DNA of 64,000 bases from an archaeon. Its GTDB lineage: Archaea; Aenigmatarchaeota; Aenigmatarchaeia; Aenigmatarchaeales; JACQIB01. Within the stretch, counting starts at the first letter, position 1, and each line of letters starts with the position of its first letter. The stretch spans positions 490,765-554,764 of the forward strand of contig DATDSO010000004.1 of assembly GCA_035291225.1 (NCBI GenBank). Direction: 5' to 3'. Of the stretch, positions 7,235-60,516 are shown piece by piece. Under the pieces are notes generated by a model that worked only from the letters and a program-made list of their open reading frames with translations, did not search any database and was not told the origin of the DNA. The translations under genes were made by a program, and so were the position numbers.

Positions 7235-8530
7235 ATGATGGAAAAAGTTTTGCAGGAGGCACGCGAGCTGGATAAAAAATTTGGATTTTTTATTTCTATA
7301 AATGAAAGCGCAAGCGAAGGCCAACCAATAGCAGTGAAAGACAACATTTGCACAGCTGGCTTGCGCACAACAGCTGGCTCAAAAATTTTGGAAAATTATG
7401 TGCCGCCGTTTGATGCAACTGTTATCGCTCGCTTGAAAAAATCTGGTTTTTCAGTAATTGGAAAAACCGCGATGGACGAATTCGGTTTTGGGACTTTCTC
7501 TGCAAACTGCGCGTACAAAATTCCAAAAAACCCGTACAATCCGCAGCGCGCATGCGGTGGCTCTTCTGGAGGGAGCGCGGGCTATATCGCTGCTTCAAAA
7601 TTCACGCGCGCCGCGCTCGCGCAATCAACAGGCGGCTCGATTTCCTGTCCTGCAAGCTTTTGTGGAGTTGTGGGGCTAACGCCAACTTACGGCCTTGTCA
7701 GCAGATGTGGTTTAATTGATTATGGAAATTCTCTTGACAAAATTGGAGTTATCGGAAAAAATGTTTCTGATTGCACAGACGTTTTAGCAATTATTGCCGG
7801 TCATGATGAGCGAGATTCCACAACAGTTGAAATAAAAAAACTTCCTGAAGTTGAAGTCCCGAAAAAAATAAAAATTGGCGTTCCGAAAGAATATTTTTCT
7901 GAAGGTGTTGATGGAAAAATTTCAAAGCTTGTCTGGCAAACGATTAAAAAATTTGAAAGCGAGGGCGCGAGCTACGAAGAAATTTCCTTGTCAACAACAA
8001 GATTCGCTCTCGCCTCCTACTACATAATTGCGATGTGCGAGGCTTCCACAAATCTTGCGAAGTTTTGCGGCCTGCGCTATGGACTCCAAGGAGAACCTGA
8101 GAGTAAAGGCTTCAACGAATATTTTTCAGAGATTCGCACGCAAGGATTTGGAGCAGAGGCAAAGCGCAGAATAATTTTAGGAACTTACGCGCGCGCAGCA
8201 GGATATCGCTACCAGTATTACTTGCGCGCGCTAAAAGTGCGCACGCTTGTGATAAATGATTTTAGGAAAGCTTTTAAAAAATTTGACTTACTTGCTGCGC
8301 CAACAATGCCTATTTTTCCCCCGAAATTTTCTGAAATTGAAAAAATGACTCCTGCGCAGATTTACGCAGCAGATGTTCTCACAGTCCCAGCAAACTTGGC
8401 AGGCATTCCACAGATAAGTTTGCCCTGCGGAAAAATAGGAAAATTGCCAGTTGGTTTGCATTTGCTCGGAGATCATTTTTCAGAGAGAAAAATAATTTCA
8501 TTCGCGCAAGGGGCTGAAAAGATTTTGTGA
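7235..8530 (+). CDS. gatA: Asp-tRNA(Asn)/Glu-tRNA(Gln) amidotransferase subunit A (amidase signature family)
   Basis: Amidase signature GGSSGGSAG, Ser-cisSer-Lys context. Overlaps gatB by 4 nt (operon). Confidence 0.9.
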   Translation: MMEKVLQEARELDKKFGFFISINESASEGQPIAVKDNICTAGLRTTAGSKILENYVPPFDATVIARLKKSGFSVIGKTAMDEFGFGTFSANCAYKIPKNPYNPQRACGGSSGGSAGYIAASKFTRAALAQSTGGSISCPASFCGVVGLTPTYGLVSRCGLIDYGNSLDKIGVIGKNVSDCTDVLAIIAGHDERDSTTVEIKKLPEVEVPKKIKIGVPKEYFSEGVDGKISKLVWQTIKKFESEGASYEEISLSTTRFALASYYIIAMCEASTNLAKFCGLRYGLQGEPESKGFNEYFSEIRTQGFGAEAKRRIILGTYARAAGYRYQYYLRALKVRTLVINDFRKAFKKFDLLAAPTMPIFPPKFSEIEKMTPAQIYAADVLTVPANLAGIPQISLPCGKIGKLPVGLHLLGDHFSERKIISFAQGAEKIL

Positions 8531-13350: not shown

Positions 13351-13731
13351 ATGTACAGAGATATAAGAGTTAAACGGAAAGGAACAGATTTGAAAAGATT
13401 CTATCCACAAGATATTTGGATTGATGTGCTTGCGAACGTGGAGAGAGACGAATACAATCAACTTCCATGCAATAGAGTTAACAAATATAATGTTGGAGCC
13501 GGCTGCGAAGGCTGTTTATATCTTAGAGAAAGATTTTCAATTCCAGGAGAGCTTCAGGAAGGCATGTCCGAAGCCAAAAAAGTTTCGGAATCCTGCCTCG
13601 TGTCAGAAGCAGAAGCAAGGCTTAAAAAAAGAGAATCAAAAAGCATTCGGGCAGTTGAAGACAGCAAATTGGGAATATATGCTGAAGAAGACGAAAAACA
13701 CGGCTTTGGTTTTGTTTTTCTTCAAATTTAA
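13351..13731 (+). CDS. Hypothetical small Cys-containing protein
   Basis: 126 aa ORF. An overlapping alternative frame (13421..13771) makes the call uncertain. Confidence 0.35.
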   Translation: MYRDIRVKRKGTDLKRFYPQDIWIDVLANVERDEYNQLPCNRVNKYNVGAGCEGCLYLRERFSIPGELQEGMSEAKKVSESCLVSEAEARLKKRESKSIRAVEDSKLGIYAEEDEKHGFGFVFLQI

Positions 13732-13756
13732 ATCCGTCCATACAAATTCTTTCTGT

Positions 13757-13977
13757 GGGCCCTTAGCATAGCCTGGATTTTTTGGAAAGGCAAATAGTGC
13801 GGCTGGCTTCGGCGCAGGGTGCAAACTTCGTTTACACCCCGCACCCCTATTATGGGATGCGATGAAACCAGCAGATCGGGGGTTCAAATGAAATGTCGCG
13901 AAGCGATAATTTCGGGAGAATAAACCCTTAAGGAGGGCGGAGCCCTTCTTGGGGTGAAATTCCCTCAGGGCTCACCA
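13757..13977 (+). tRNA. tRNA-Arg (anticodon UCG) with three introns: D-loop (13778-13794), anticodon 37/38 (13813-13866), T-loop 60/61 (13890-13961); CCA encoded
   Basis: Exons assemble to GGGCCCT-TA-GCAT-AGCCTGGA..TA-GTGC-G-GCTGG-CTTCGG..A-CCAGC-AGATC-GGGGG-TTCAAAT..CCCTC-AGGGCTC-A-CCA with all stems base-paired. TATA CAAATTTAAATCC at 13723-13735 (about -27). Confidence 0.6.
13813..13866 (+). ncRNA. Conserved about 55-nt element, copy 1 (identical with the 37/38 intron of tRNA-Arg)
   Basis: CGCAGGGTGCAAACTTCGTTTACACCCCGCACCCCTATTATGGGATGCGATGAAA. About 80% identical to copy 2. Internal hairpin GGGTGCAAAC-TTCG-TTTACACCC. Confidence 0.5.
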
Positions 13978-14126
13978 ATCCACCTTCTCTTTCTTTTCTG
14001 TTCTGAACTTGAAAAAGAAAGAGAATGTAGGCTTCAGTAAAAATCTGAAAGATTTTTACGCGCAGAAAAATTCCCTGAAGGAATTATTTCTGTTACCAAG
14101 AGAAAGAAAAAATTTCATAACTTCTT

Positions 14127-16063: not shown

Positions 16064-16234
16064 GCTCCCATCGTCTAGTCCGGTCAAATTTGCCGAGAGG
16101 ATCAGAGCTTCTCAAGCTCTTGACATGGGTGGCGTATTTCAATTTCAGATTTGCGCCCATGAATTCAAACTAAGTGAAGCAAGTTTCACACGCTTTCAAA
16201 AGCTTCGCTTTCAAAAATCCCGTTGGGGGCACCA
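16064..16234 (+). tRNA. tRNA-Glu (anticodon CUC), intron-containing with unresolved non-canonical insertions (D-loop about 11 nt, T-arm about 80 nt); CCA encoded
   Basis: Acceptor GCTCCCA/TGGGGGC-A-CCA. Archaeal tRNA-Glu D-loop signature TAGTCCGGTCAA. Anticodon arm AGAGC-TTCTCAA-GCTCT. T-stem ATGGG/CCCGT separated by an insert. TATA ATTATTTAAATC at 16029-16040 (-28). Confidence 0.45.
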
Positions 16235-34309: not shown

Positions 34310-34404
34310 AATTTCTATTAACCACTCTTCCGCCTCAACTTCTTATGGAAAGAAAACTTAAATACTTTGAGCCCGCAATAATTTCTGTTTGAATGAAGCT
34401 CGCA

Positions 34405-34460
34405 CGCAGGGTGCTCACTTCGTTCACACCCCGCACCCCTATCATATGCGTGTTCGCAAA
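34405..34460 (+). ncRNA. Conserved about 55-nt element, copy 2 (free-standing in the tbp-mcm spacer, own TATA about 40 nt upstream)
   Basis: CGCAGGGTGCTCACTTCGTTCACACCCCGCACCCCTATCATATGCGTGTTCGCAAA. TATA AACTTAAATAC at 34356-34366. No tRNA exons around it. Confidence 0.45.
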
Positions 34461-34493
34461 CTGATGTGTAAAAAATATTAAAAAAAGATTTCT

Positions 34494-40712: not shown

Positions 40713-40861
40713 AGCGGGATGGGGCAGCCTGGAGTGCCCGTCGGGCTCATAACCCGAAGGTCCTCAGTTCAAATCCCAAGCCTTTTTCTCGAAAAAGGCT
40801 AGGGCTTATCCAAAAAGGAAAATTGCAATATTAGGATAAAAAAATCTGAGTCCCGCTACCA
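40713..40861 (+). tRNA. Initiator-type tRNA-Met (CAU) with a 71-nt intron between T-loop and 3' T-stem (40775-40845); CCA encoded
   Basis: AGCGGGA-TG-GGGC-AGCCTGGAGT-GCCC-G-TCGGG-CTCATAA-CCCGA-AGGTC-CTCAG-TTCAAAT-[intron]-CTGAG-TCCCGCT-A-CCA. A1-U72 pair and three G-C pairs in the anticodon stem (initiator hallmarks). TATA TATTTAAAATC at 40682-40692. Confidence 0.8.
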
Positions 40862-42487: not shown

Positions 42488-43345
42488 ATGCGCAAATATC
42501 ATTTTATGTCGTTCAAAGAAAAATTGTCATTGGAATTGAAAGGGAGAATGGATGAAAAAGAACTAAAGCTTCTGCCAGCCGGCTGCCGCTTTATAGGTAG
42601 TGTTATTATTCTAAAGCTGCCGCCCGCACTTTTGAAAAGGAAAAAAATCATCTGCTCTGAAGTTTTAAAATTTTTTCCTTATATGAAAACTGCCTGCATA
42701 GAGGAAAAAATTTTTGGCTCAAGAAGACAACCGAAAATAGAAGTTATTGCTGGCGCGCGCAAAACTGAAACAATTTTAACCGAGCATGGCTGCCGCTTGA
42801 TTATGGATCCTGCGAAAGTCATGTTTTCTGTTGGAAACAAATTTGAGAAAGAGCGCCTGCTAAAAATCTGCAAACCAAATGAAACAGTAGTGGATATGTT
42901 TGCAGGAATTGGCTATTGGACAGTTCCGATTGCAGAATTCTGCCGGCCAAAGAAAATTTTTGCGATAGACAAAAATAAAATTGCTGTGGAATATTTGGAA
43001 AAAAACTGCAAGCTGAATAAAGTTTCTGGGAAAGTTGAAATTTTGCAGGGTGATTGCAGGAAATTTTCACATATTCTAGAGTCAAAAGCTGATAGAATAA
43101 TAATGGGCTGGATTTTTGAAACGGAAAAGTTCCTTCCTTTTGCTTTGAGAATAGCAAAAAAGAAATGTACGATACATTTTCACAGGATTTTGCACCCTAG
43201 CGATTTGCCGGCTTTGAAGAAAAGGATTTTGCTTATAGCAAAAAAACAAAAATGCAAAATTAAATTTTCTGCTGTGCGGCAGGTTAAAACTTATTCGCCG
43301 AGGCAGAGGCATTTTGTTTTGGATATTATAGCTTTAAAATCCTAA
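42488..43345 (+). CDS. Class I SAM-dependent tRNA methyltransferase, Trm5/Taw2(TYW2) family
   Basis: Met-10+ fold motifs VVDMFAGIGYWTVPIA, DKN. Confidence 0.8.
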   Translation: MRKYHFMSFKEKLSLELKGRMDEKELKLLPAGCRFIGSVIILKLPPALLKRKKIICSEVLKFFPYMKTACIEEKIFGSRRQPKIEVIAGARKTETILTEHGCRLIMDPAKVMFSVGNKFEKERLLKICKPNETVVDMFAGIGYWTVPIAEFCRPKKIFAIDKNKIAVEYLEKNCKLNKVSGKVEILQGDCRKFSHILESKADRIIMGWIFETEKFLPFALRIAKKKCTIHFHRILHPSDLPALKKRILLIAKKQKCKIKFSAVRQVKTYSPRQRHFVLDIIALKS

Positions 43346-44141
43346 AATCAATCCTAACTTTCTGCAGCCGCGGCGCATAAGGCAGAACTTTCTGCCGGCC
43401 AATAAATTTTATTTTTGTTTTATGGCTGGCGCAGATTTTCTTTATTTTTGCTTCGACATCAGCAAACAAATTTTTCTGTTCAGAAATCGCATAGACTTGA
43501 ATAGTTGCTCTCTCTTTTGTTCCACGCTTCGCCCATGCGAGCGCTTCGGGCAGAAATTCTAGGCTGCTTTCAGGAAGTGGCATAATAATTCTGTCAAATT
43601 TATAAACCTGTTTAGAAAGACACTCTCCATCGCTAACATCTCCATAAATATTTTCCGCGTTGCTAATTTTATTTAGTTTCAAATTTTCATCAGCATACTT
43701 TACAGCAATTTTGTTAAGTTCAATTCCAACAACTTCACACGATGGGCGGGCTTTTCCAATATACACCAACAAAGGCCCGATGCCGGAAAACATTACAAGA
43801 ACTCTTTCTTTCGGCTTTACTAAAGCAGCAATACGCGCCCGCTCCTCTGATTCTCGTGGGGAAAAATAAACTTTTCGCGGATCCAGCTTGAAAAGAAATC
43901 CATGCTCCTTATGCAAAACTTCTGTATTCTTAGAGCCAGCCAGAAGTTTTAATTTATAAATCCTGAATGCGCCAGCGCGGCCGGAAGTTTTTCCCAAAAC
44001 TGTTTTCACGTGCGCGTGGCGGCGTAAAATTTCACGCGCAATTTCTTTTGTGTTTTTCTTTTTGTAAATGTCTACAACAGCAACAGCTCTGCCGGCTGAG
44101 CCGATTAAATCGTATGCAATTCTGGTAGCGGGGTTTCGCAT
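43326..44141 (-). CDS. Second Trm5/Taw2(TYW2)-family methyltransferase paralogue (convergent with the first)
   Basis: Motifs VLVMFSGIGPLLVYIG, ELNK. Paralogous to 42488..43345. Confidence 0.78.
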   Translation of the reverse strand: MRNPATRIAYDLIGSAGRAVAVVDIYKKKNTKEIAREILRRHAHVKTVLGKTSGRAGAFRIYKLKLLAGSKNTEVLHKEHGFLFKLDPRKVYFSPRESEERARIAALVKPKERVLVMFSGIGPLLVYIGKARPSCEVVGIELNKIAVKYADENLKLNKISNAENIYGDVSDGECLSKQVYKFDRIIMPLPESSLEFLPEALAWAKRGTKERATIQVYAISEQKNLFADVEAKIKKICASHKTKIKFIGRQKVLPYAPRLQKVRIDFRILKL

Positions 44142-60236: not shown

Positions 60237-60240
60237 TTGG

Positions 60241-60516
60241 CGCCCAGGACAGGAATTTCTTTTCCTGATTTTGAATGCAGTCCACCTTTAATTTTTTCCC
60301 TTTTCCAATAAAAAAGAAAAGGTGGAAACCTGCGACCTGCTGGTGTCTTTTGCGCTCGCTTCGGTAAACCGAAGCTCGCAATAAATCATGTGACAAAATT
60401 ATTCGCCACGAAATTTATGGCAACTTATTTTCACATAATGACAGCGAGCGTGAAAAAATTATTTTTCACGCGAGCTCAATAACAGCCAGCCGCTCTTCCG
60501 GCTGAGCTACCTGGGC
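60241..60516 (-). tRNA. tRNA-Asn (GUU) with about 135-nt canonical 37/38 intron and a second about 80-nt insertion in the T-arm (boundaries unresolved)
   Basis: Minus strand: GCCCAGG-TA-GCTC-AGCCGGAA-GAGC-G-GCTGG-CTGTTA[intron]A-CCAGC-AGGTC-GCAGG...[insert]...CCTGT-CCTGGGC-G. TATA CTTTATAAATTT about 30 nt upstream on the minus strand. Confidence 0.55.

Follow-up and report, generated by a model that had tools for sequence, protein, structure and literature searches.

The segment at positions 13757-13977 of the analysed DNA (the window, a stretch of 64,000 nucleotides) is very probably a functional tRNA-Arg(UCG) gene, likely present in a single copy, with protein-spliced BHB introns at positions 19/20, 37/38 and 59/60 of the tRNA. 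This reading rests on the sequence of the gene and of its relatives. The host is an uncultured DPANN archaeon, with Candidatus Aenigmatarchaeota as the closest named relatives. Multi-intron archaeal tRNAs with BHB motifs are already known, and the lineage context, namely the intron density, a probable four-intron gene in a sister genome and intron turnover at the species level, is more notable than the gene itself.

A tRNA-Arg(UCG) gene in four exons

The exon strings listed in the original prediction are present in the sequence, and the canonical cloverleaf that it claimed is obtained by splicing in silico. When the three inserts are removed, the exons join to the 78-nt GGGCCCTTAGCATAGCCTGGATAGTGCGGCTGGCTTCGGACCAGCAGATCGGGGGTTCAAATCCCTCAGGGCTCACCA, which ARAGORN calls as a full-length tRNA-Arg(tcg) with every stem paired. 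The acceptor, D, anticodon and T stems (7/4/5/5 bp) contain 21 pairs, all of them formed, with wobble pairs at G2.U71, U13.G22 and G50.U64. The conserved bases U8, A14, G18G19, A21, U33, G53, U54 U55 C56, A58 and C61 can all be read. Stems and conserved nucleotides are both as in an elongator tRNA-Arg(UCG).

The four exons are collinear on one strand, the plus strand, and lie within 221 nt. Exon 1 (13757-13776) comprises the acceptor 5' strand, U8 A9, the D-stem 5' strand and the D-loop from A14 to G19, and is identical in the orthologs from the genomes L003 and L083. Exon 2 (13794-13812) continues with A20 U20a A21, the D-stem 3' strand, G26, the anticodon stem 5' strand and the loop from C32 to G37, and contains the anticodon UCG at 13809-13811. 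Exon 3 (13867-13888) provides A38, the anticodon stem 3' strand, the variable loop, the T-stem 5' strand and the T-loop from U54 to A59. Exon 4 (13961-13977) provides U60, the T-stem 3' strand, the acceptor 3' strand and the discriminator A73, and ends with a genomically encoded CCA (13975-13977). The TATA box that had been predicted upstream is found on the plus strand as a TATA-like element, TTTAAAT, at 13727-13733 (-30 to -24 of the tRNA 5' end), and may act as the promoter. Downstream, a T-rich trailer on the same strand, CTCTTTCTTTTCTGTTCTG (13985-14003), is likely to be an archaeal oligo-T termination region. The codons CGA and CGG account for 46 of the 486 arginine codons in 17 genes of the window, which points to a need for tRNA-Arg(UCG).

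The unspliced locus escapes standard detection. ARAGORN makes no call for it, with the intron mode on or off, and calls the spliced 78-mer as tRNA-Arg(tcg). Rfam gives no match for the unspliced locus at the gathering threshold or at E<=5. As intronless orthologs are detected by the Rfam RF00005 model at 64-69 bits, the failure to detect the window gene can be attributed to the inserts.

The three introns claimed for the D-loop, the 37/38 site and the T-loop are supported by in-silico splicing, by orthology and covariation, and by the BHB geometry of each junction, which has A-rich bulges and follows the canonical archaeal register. The boundaries of introns 1 and 3 are ambiguous by sliding and were resolved by this geometry. 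The register was fixed by the canonical 37/38 introns of the orthologs in L003, L007, L008, L012 and L035, in which nucleotides 32-35 (CUUC) pair with GAAG, GGAG or GAGG located just before the last two intron bases. One bulge is then formed by nucleotides 36 and 37 and the first intron base, and the other by the last two intron bases and nucleotide 38. The arrangement of a 4-bp helix and 3-nt bulges recurs, in the same register, at all 13 junctions that five orthologs have.

Intron 1 (17 nt, 13777-13793, plus strand) interrupts the D-loop between G19 and A20 (19/20) and has a complete hBHBh' motif. Its central helix GCCU (13771-74)/AGGC (13788-91) is formed by 4/4 bp and flanked by the bulges GG|A and AA|A, with an outer helix of 2 bp and an inner helix of 3-4 bp. 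The original prediction had placed this intron at 13778-13794; an intron is present and the mature sequence is the same, but the BHB geometry favours a position one base to the left. Intron 2 (54 nt, 13813-13866, plus strand) is located at the canonical 37/38 site, exactly as predicted and with unambiguous boundaries. Its central helix CUUC (32-35)/GAUG has 3/4 bp, due to a U.U mismatch, and its bulges are GG|C and AA|A; the anticodon stem serves as the outer helix and GCA/UGC as the inner helix. Intron 3 (72 nt, 13889-13960, plus strand) lies in the T-loop at 59/60 and not, as had been thought, at 60/61 (13890-13961). It is of the relaxed hBH form, with a central helix UUCA (54-57)/UGAA (13955-58) of 4/4 bp, the bulges AA|U and AU|U, and the T stem as the outer helix. 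An inner helix is missing and the intron body folds into hairpins. The 3' end of this intron, UGAAAU|U, is also the end of a 13-nt intron in L087. The expectation of relaxed splice motifs thus holds for introns 2 and 3, but not for the complete motif of intron 1.

The other sliding registers (13778-94 and 13779-95 for intron 1, 13890-13961 for intron 3) were rejected, since no more than 1-2 of the 4 bp of the central helix form in them; in the L003 ortholog, the T-loop intron is unambiguously at 59/60. When the introns are shuffled, a BHB motif of equal quality arises in 0.26% (intron 1), 0.5% (intron 2) and 2.7% (intron 3) of cases. Intron 1 is absent from the L003 ortholog, which has an identical mature D-loop, and its excision from the window gene restores exactly this loop. 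After removal of all three introns, the window sequence equals the mature sequences of L003 and L083, except for compensatory pairs in the anticodon stem.

In the proposed maturation pathway, a 221-nt precursor would be transcribed from the TATA box at about -27. At each junction, exon bases would pair with a tetramer of the intron located just ahead of its two final bases, to form a 4-bp helix with two 3-nt bulges; this pairing is apparent from the sequence geometry. If the established archaeal pathway applies, EndA would cut between the second and third bulge nucleotide, at six sites in total, and an RtcB-type ligase would join the four exons. The product would be a 75-nt tRNA plus the encoded CCA that reads CGA and probably CGG. 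Forced into the three BHB motifs, the precursor has a predicted folding energy of -71.5 kcal/mol, vs -89.7 kcal/mol for the unconstrained fold, so that the three-BHB fold, 18 kcal/mol above the minimum, is predicted to be stable but not favoured.

Other identities of the inserts were considered and rejected. Self-splicing group I or group II introns require a core of more than 200 nt, which the inserts of 17, 54 and 72 nt do not accommodate, and no such intron was hit in Rfam at E<=5. A C/D box sRNA, such as the one encoded in the tRNA-Trp intron of Haloferax, is not indicated either, since the three introns contain no CUGA and give no C/D hit in Rfam. Intron 2 has the only element resembling a C box (C box RUGAUGA; D box CUGA), namely GCGAUGA at its 3' end.

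Orthologs and intron sets in related genomes

The window gene is the syntenic ortholog, downstream of the AsnRS gene, of tRNA-Arg(UCG) genes in Aenigmatarchaeota-like DPANN genomes, and in at least 16 other genomes the syntenic ortholog has identical or nearly identical exons. Orthologs without introns are found in L005, L013, L016, L019, L034, L021 and L026, those with a single 37/38 intron in L007, L008 and L012, and those with a single 30/31 intron in L006, L014 and L028. An initial spliced aligner with a low intron penalty scattered the exons of distant loci, and only hits checked by eye were kept. A scan of metagenomes with exon 1 as the pattern gave no contig beyond those already compared.

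When 17 orthologs, spliced or intronless, are aligned, all 354 cells (100%) pair on the cloverleaf, and compensatory changes are seen in 10 of the 21 pairs. Covariation scores 0.50, vs 0.22 in shuffles, and slid registers drop to 25-55% paired. Both orthology and covariation thus tie the window gene to recognised tRNA-Arg(UCG) genes. The 30/31 anticodon-stem intron of the distant relatives (L006 6797-6886, L014 5550-5643, L028 3020-3116) always ends in CGAA|G, an ending that it has in common with the 30/31 intron of the L003 tRNA-Ser.

The close clade comprises five genomes including the window, with 90-94% amino-acid and 82-87% nucleotide identity of AsnRS and a nearly star-like tree. The mature tRNA is the same in all five, but each genome has an intron set of its own. 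The window has three introns (19/20, 17 nt; 37/38, 54 nt; 59/60, 72 nt), L003 has two (37/38, 115 nt; 59/60, 70 nt), and L083/L085 has a single one (20a/21, 11 nt). Three introns are found in L087 (GCA_053529595.1; 20a/21, 12 nt; 53/54, 23 nt; 59/60, 13 nt) and four BHB introns in L088 (GCA_053536755.1, contig JAIYGR010000049.1, 5261-5402; 20a/21, 12 nt; 37/38, 16 nt; 53/54, 23 nt; 59/60, 13 nt). ARAGORN recognises all five spliced products as 78-nt tRNA-Arg and none of the five unspliced versions. The published maximum for archaeal tRNA genes is three introns (tRNAscan-SE 2.0, PMC8450103; Fujishima and Kanai 2014, PMC4033280), and a four-intron archaeal tRNA gene was not reported in the literature that we searched. 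Judged by its splice motifs, the L088 gene probably exceeds this limit.

The splice motifs covary between the clade genomes. The anticodon stem occurs in the variants GCUGG/CCAGC, AUUGG/CCAAU and CUCGG/CCGAG, with compensatory changes across the 37/38 intron. The BHB helix of the D-loop intron is CUGG/CCAG in L083 vs UAGG/CCUA in L087 and L088, which is direct evidence for selection on the splice motif. The D-loop intron of the window is located two bases upstream of the site used in L083, L087 and L088 and has a different helix, and is thus a separate gain or a replacement. Introns at the same site are mostly unrelated in sequence between the clade genomes. The exceptions are the D-loop and 53/54 introns of L087 and L088, which are identical, and their 59/60 introns, which are nearly so; elsewhere, only short 3' ends are conserved. 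By our count, the intron history needs at least six presence/absence events and several sequence replacements. The 53/54 motif of L087 and L088 uses the T-stem bases G49-G51, so that the 59/60 outer helix cannot form at the same time, which implies ordered splicing.

The interval between AsnRS and tRNA-Arg differs as well. In the window, it contains an ORF of 126 aa without a family match (13351-13731, plus strand), and in L083 (4260-5106), L087 and L088 it contains instead a nucleotidyltransferase gene (NTP_transf_2/Polbeta) and a 115-aa partner on the opposite strand. This difference in gene content is a local rearrangement that adjoins the tRNA gene.

Interrupted neighbours and intron mobility

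A structure-based scan of the 64-kb window found three further tRNA genes, all of them missed by ARAGORN and Rfam. A tRNA-Glu(CUC) gene (16064-16234, plus strand) has introns in the D-loop (16087-97), at 53/54 (16130-63) and at 59/60 (16170-217). An initiator-type tRNA-Met(CAU) gene with an A1:U72 pair (40713-40861, plus strand) has a single 71-nt intron at 59/60 (40774-40844). A tRNA-Asn(GUU) gene (60238-60516, minus strand) has introns at 37/38 (60345-60479, 135 nt), 54/55 (60275-60327, 53 nt) and 59/60 (60255-60269, 15 nt). Every tRNA gene that was found in the window, whether for Arg, Glu, initiator Met or Asn, is thus interrupted, and the four genes have 10 introns in total. All four encode CCA and are preceded by TTTAAAT or TATAAAT at about -33 to -24. 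The original prediction called three introns in one tRNA rare, which is correct for archaea in general but not for this genome, where three of the four window tRNA genes have three introns each.

The splice motifs of these genes range from strict to very relaxed. The 54/55 intron of tRNA-Asn has a strict BHB motif with a 9-bp inner helix. The 59/60 motifs of the initiator tRNA-Met and of tRNA-Glu have a central helix of only 2/4 bp, which indicates a very tolerant enzyme. The spliced tRNA-Glu is a 78-mer that ARAGORN calls as a full-length tRNA-Glu. In a restricted enumeration of intron combinations, ARAGORN accepted many D-loop variants and cannot set the register alone; orthologs and helix quality were therefore used instead. 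For tRNA-Glu, the sole D-loop excision with a 4/4 helix gives the exact D-arm of intronless orthologs.

Two adjacent, convergent genes for methyltransferases of the Trm5/TYW2 family (m1G37/wyosine pathway) are located at 42488-44141, 2-3 kb from the initiator tRNA-Met gene. Among the genes with a 37/38 intron that were seen, the tRNA-Arg(UCG) genes have G37 directly 5' of the splice site.

In L003, a tRNA-Ser(CGA) gene (7706-7942, minus strand) has a D-arm insert of about 56 nt, a 19-nt 30/31 intron that ends in CGAA, and a 59/60 intron of the CCCAAGCC family. A tRNA-Glu(CUC) gene of the same genome (7510-7670, minus strand) has inserts in the D-loop and at 59/60. Together with tRNA-Arg, these genes amount to 7 introns in 3 tRNA genes within 9 kb. 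The published density record is 71 introns in 46 tRNA genes, in Pyrobaculum calidifontis (PMC8450103).

The CCCAAGCC family occupies the 59/60 site in the initiator tRNA-Met of the window and in the tRNA-Arg, tRNA-Ser and tRNA-Glu of L003, with 90-98% identity. The 59/60 intron of the window tRNA is 96-98% identical over 51-52 nt to those of the L003 tRNA-Arg and tRNA-Ser(CGA), and 90% identical over 29 nt to that of the L003 tRNA-Glu. In Thermoproteales, an intron family common to different tRNA genes has been read as transposition (PMC4033280). The three introns of the window tRNA-Arg have no copy in another tRNA among the sequences compared. The central helices may explain how such introns can spread. 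The D-loop and T-loop helices would use universal bases (the G18G19 region and U54 U55 C56 R57, respectively), and an intron with a complementary tetramer could work in any tRNA. At 59/60, where the helix is built on U54 U55 C56 R57, an intron that ends in (U/A)GAA plus two bases would be portable. Such portability fits both the presence of one 59/60 family in different tRNAs and the speed at which sister species gain, lose and replace introns.

A partial copy of intron 2 exists outside of tRNA genes. The 5' part of this intron recurs with 35 of 38 nt (92%) at 34405-34442 (plus strand), in the intergenic spacer between the TBP and MCM genes (34310-34493). A TATA-like CTTAAATA is present nearby at 34357, and GTTTG (34387-91) and CAAAC (34457-61) lie on either side of the copy. 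The copy is not tRNA-like and was not matched in Rfam, and BHB boundaries around it are not convincing, their frequency being about that of chance. It may represent a small RNA gene, a mini mobile element or a source from which intron sequence was donated.

Alternative explanations and biological context

The window locus might be a tRNA-Arg pseudogene that was disrupted by insertions and is not processed, with a working copy elsewhere in the genome. Its invisibility to the standard detectors and the fact that the BHB fold of the precursor is not the thermodynamic optimum would be compatible with this idea. However, excision of each insert in its BHB register yields precisely the ortholog sequence, the exons are free of defects, and stem changes between sister genomes are compensatory. 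Moreover, it is at this syntenic position, which is conserved, that the relatives have their sole tRNA-Arg(UCG), and the three other tRNA genes of the window, which include the initiator, are similarly interrupted and cannot all be dead. A pseudogene is therefore very unlikely.

It is highly improbable that only the 37/38 and T-loop inserts are introns and that the 17-nt D-loop insert is kept as an expanded D-loop. ARAGORN still calls a tRNA-Arg when only introns 2 and 3 are removed, but with a different and poorly supported 5' half, and the resulting 27-nt D-loop would part G18G19 from A20 and A21. The insert has a complete hBHBh' motif of a quality found in 0.26% of shuffles, and its cuts restore the exact D-loop AGCCUGGAUA of L003 and L083. 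The D-loop introns of L083, L087, L088 and tRNA-Glu follow the same rule, with a helix that covaries. Three arbitrary deletions offer many degrees of freedom and ARAGORN is lenient on loop content, so that the cloverleaf could in principle be a product of chance or of faulty assembly, brought out by freely chosen deletions. This explanation can hardly be maintained in view of the exon matches to at least 16 other genomes, the BHB registers that are significant against shuffles, and the complete identity of the 221 nt of the locus in two independent assemblies from different samples (ENA metagenome contigs).

Taken as a functional three-intron gene, the locus can be compared with several known systems. 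Multi-intron tRNA genes have been described in the Thermoproteales Pyrobaculum, Thermofilum and Caldivirga (Sugahara et al. 2008, Fujishima et al. 2010, reviewed in PMC4033280 and PMC8450103). There as here, a single tRNA gene can have as many as three BHB introns. Besides canonical positions, non-canonical ones are occupied, among them sites in the D- and T-arms; some of the motifs are relaxed, introns of related sequence are found in different tRNA genes, and standard finders miss genes. In contrast to these hyperthermophilic crenarchaea, the organism studied here is a low-GC DPANN archaeon of an unrelated lineage. Moreover, the local density of 10 introns in 4 genes is above the record of 71 in 46, a sister genome has a gene with four introns, and the intron content differs at 90-94% AsnRS identity. 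[quoted passage not shown]

Disrupted tRNA genes are also known from DPANN archaea with a broad-specificity EndA, which is either of the epsilon2 type of ARMAN-2/Micrarchaeum or of the alpha4 type with an L3 loop (PMC3239211, PMC5829648, PMC12397907). These organisms belong to the same superphylum and have introns with non-canonical BHB, BHL or hBH motifs. The DPANN papers covered Micrarchaeota, Woesearchaeota, Pacearchaeota, Nanohaloarchaea and Nanoarchaeum, whereas the clade described here is Aenigmatarchaeota-like. More tRNA gene disruption has been noted in DPANN, and undetected disrupted genes have been suspected (Kaneta et al. 2018, PMC5829648). [quoted passage not shown] However, the latter is a eukaryotic nuclear gene served by a different endonuclease, and the window gene is known from its sequence. 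The split and permuted tRNA genes of Nanoarchaeum equitans and Caldivirga maquilingensis (PMC3218864) are also fragmented archaeal tRNAs that depend on BHB processing. In contrast to these genes, the exons of the window gene are collinear and require neither trans-splicing nor permutation.

The original prediction expected an archaeon of the DPANN or Thermoproteales kind, and the neighbouring genes turned out to be of DPANN affiliation. They are archaeal housekeeping genes (GatCAB, glutamine synthetase, Lrp/AsnC, AsnRS, TBP, MCM, Hjc, aIF2-beta, Trm5/TYW2). The AsnRS encoded just upstream of tRNA-Arg is 93% identical to that of a GTDB archaeon and about 70% identical to those of several Candidatus Aenigmatarchaeota MAGs, so that the organism is a DPANN archaeon. 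At the phylum level, its placement as Aenigmatarchaeota-like is provisional. The GC content of the lineage is about 41%. Genes for EndA or RtcB were not found among the annotated genes of the 64-kb window. A 177-aa ORF that adjoins the initiator tRNA-Met gene is not EndA, and neither Pfam nor PDB gave a match for it. Strict motifs occur alongside very relaxed ones, and in sister genomes the 53/54 and 59/60 motifs exclude each other, from which an endonuclease of broad specificity and an obligatory splicing order are predicted.

As all four tRNA genes of the window are invisible to ARAGORN and Rfam, claims of missing tRNAs or reduced translation that are based on MAGs of such DPANN archaea are likely to be artefacts. 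On balance, we favour the view that this clade has the densest known tRNA introns (about 2.3-2.5 per gene in the regions sampled, vs 1.54), four-intron genes, and ongoing gain, loss, replacement and transposition of introns at the species level. If this is true, the clade would be a natural system to learn how protein-spliced tRNA introns move. The presence/absence series, the 59/60 family that crosses tRNA identities, and the helices built on universal bases together provide a testable model of site hotspots and of the spread of BHB introns.
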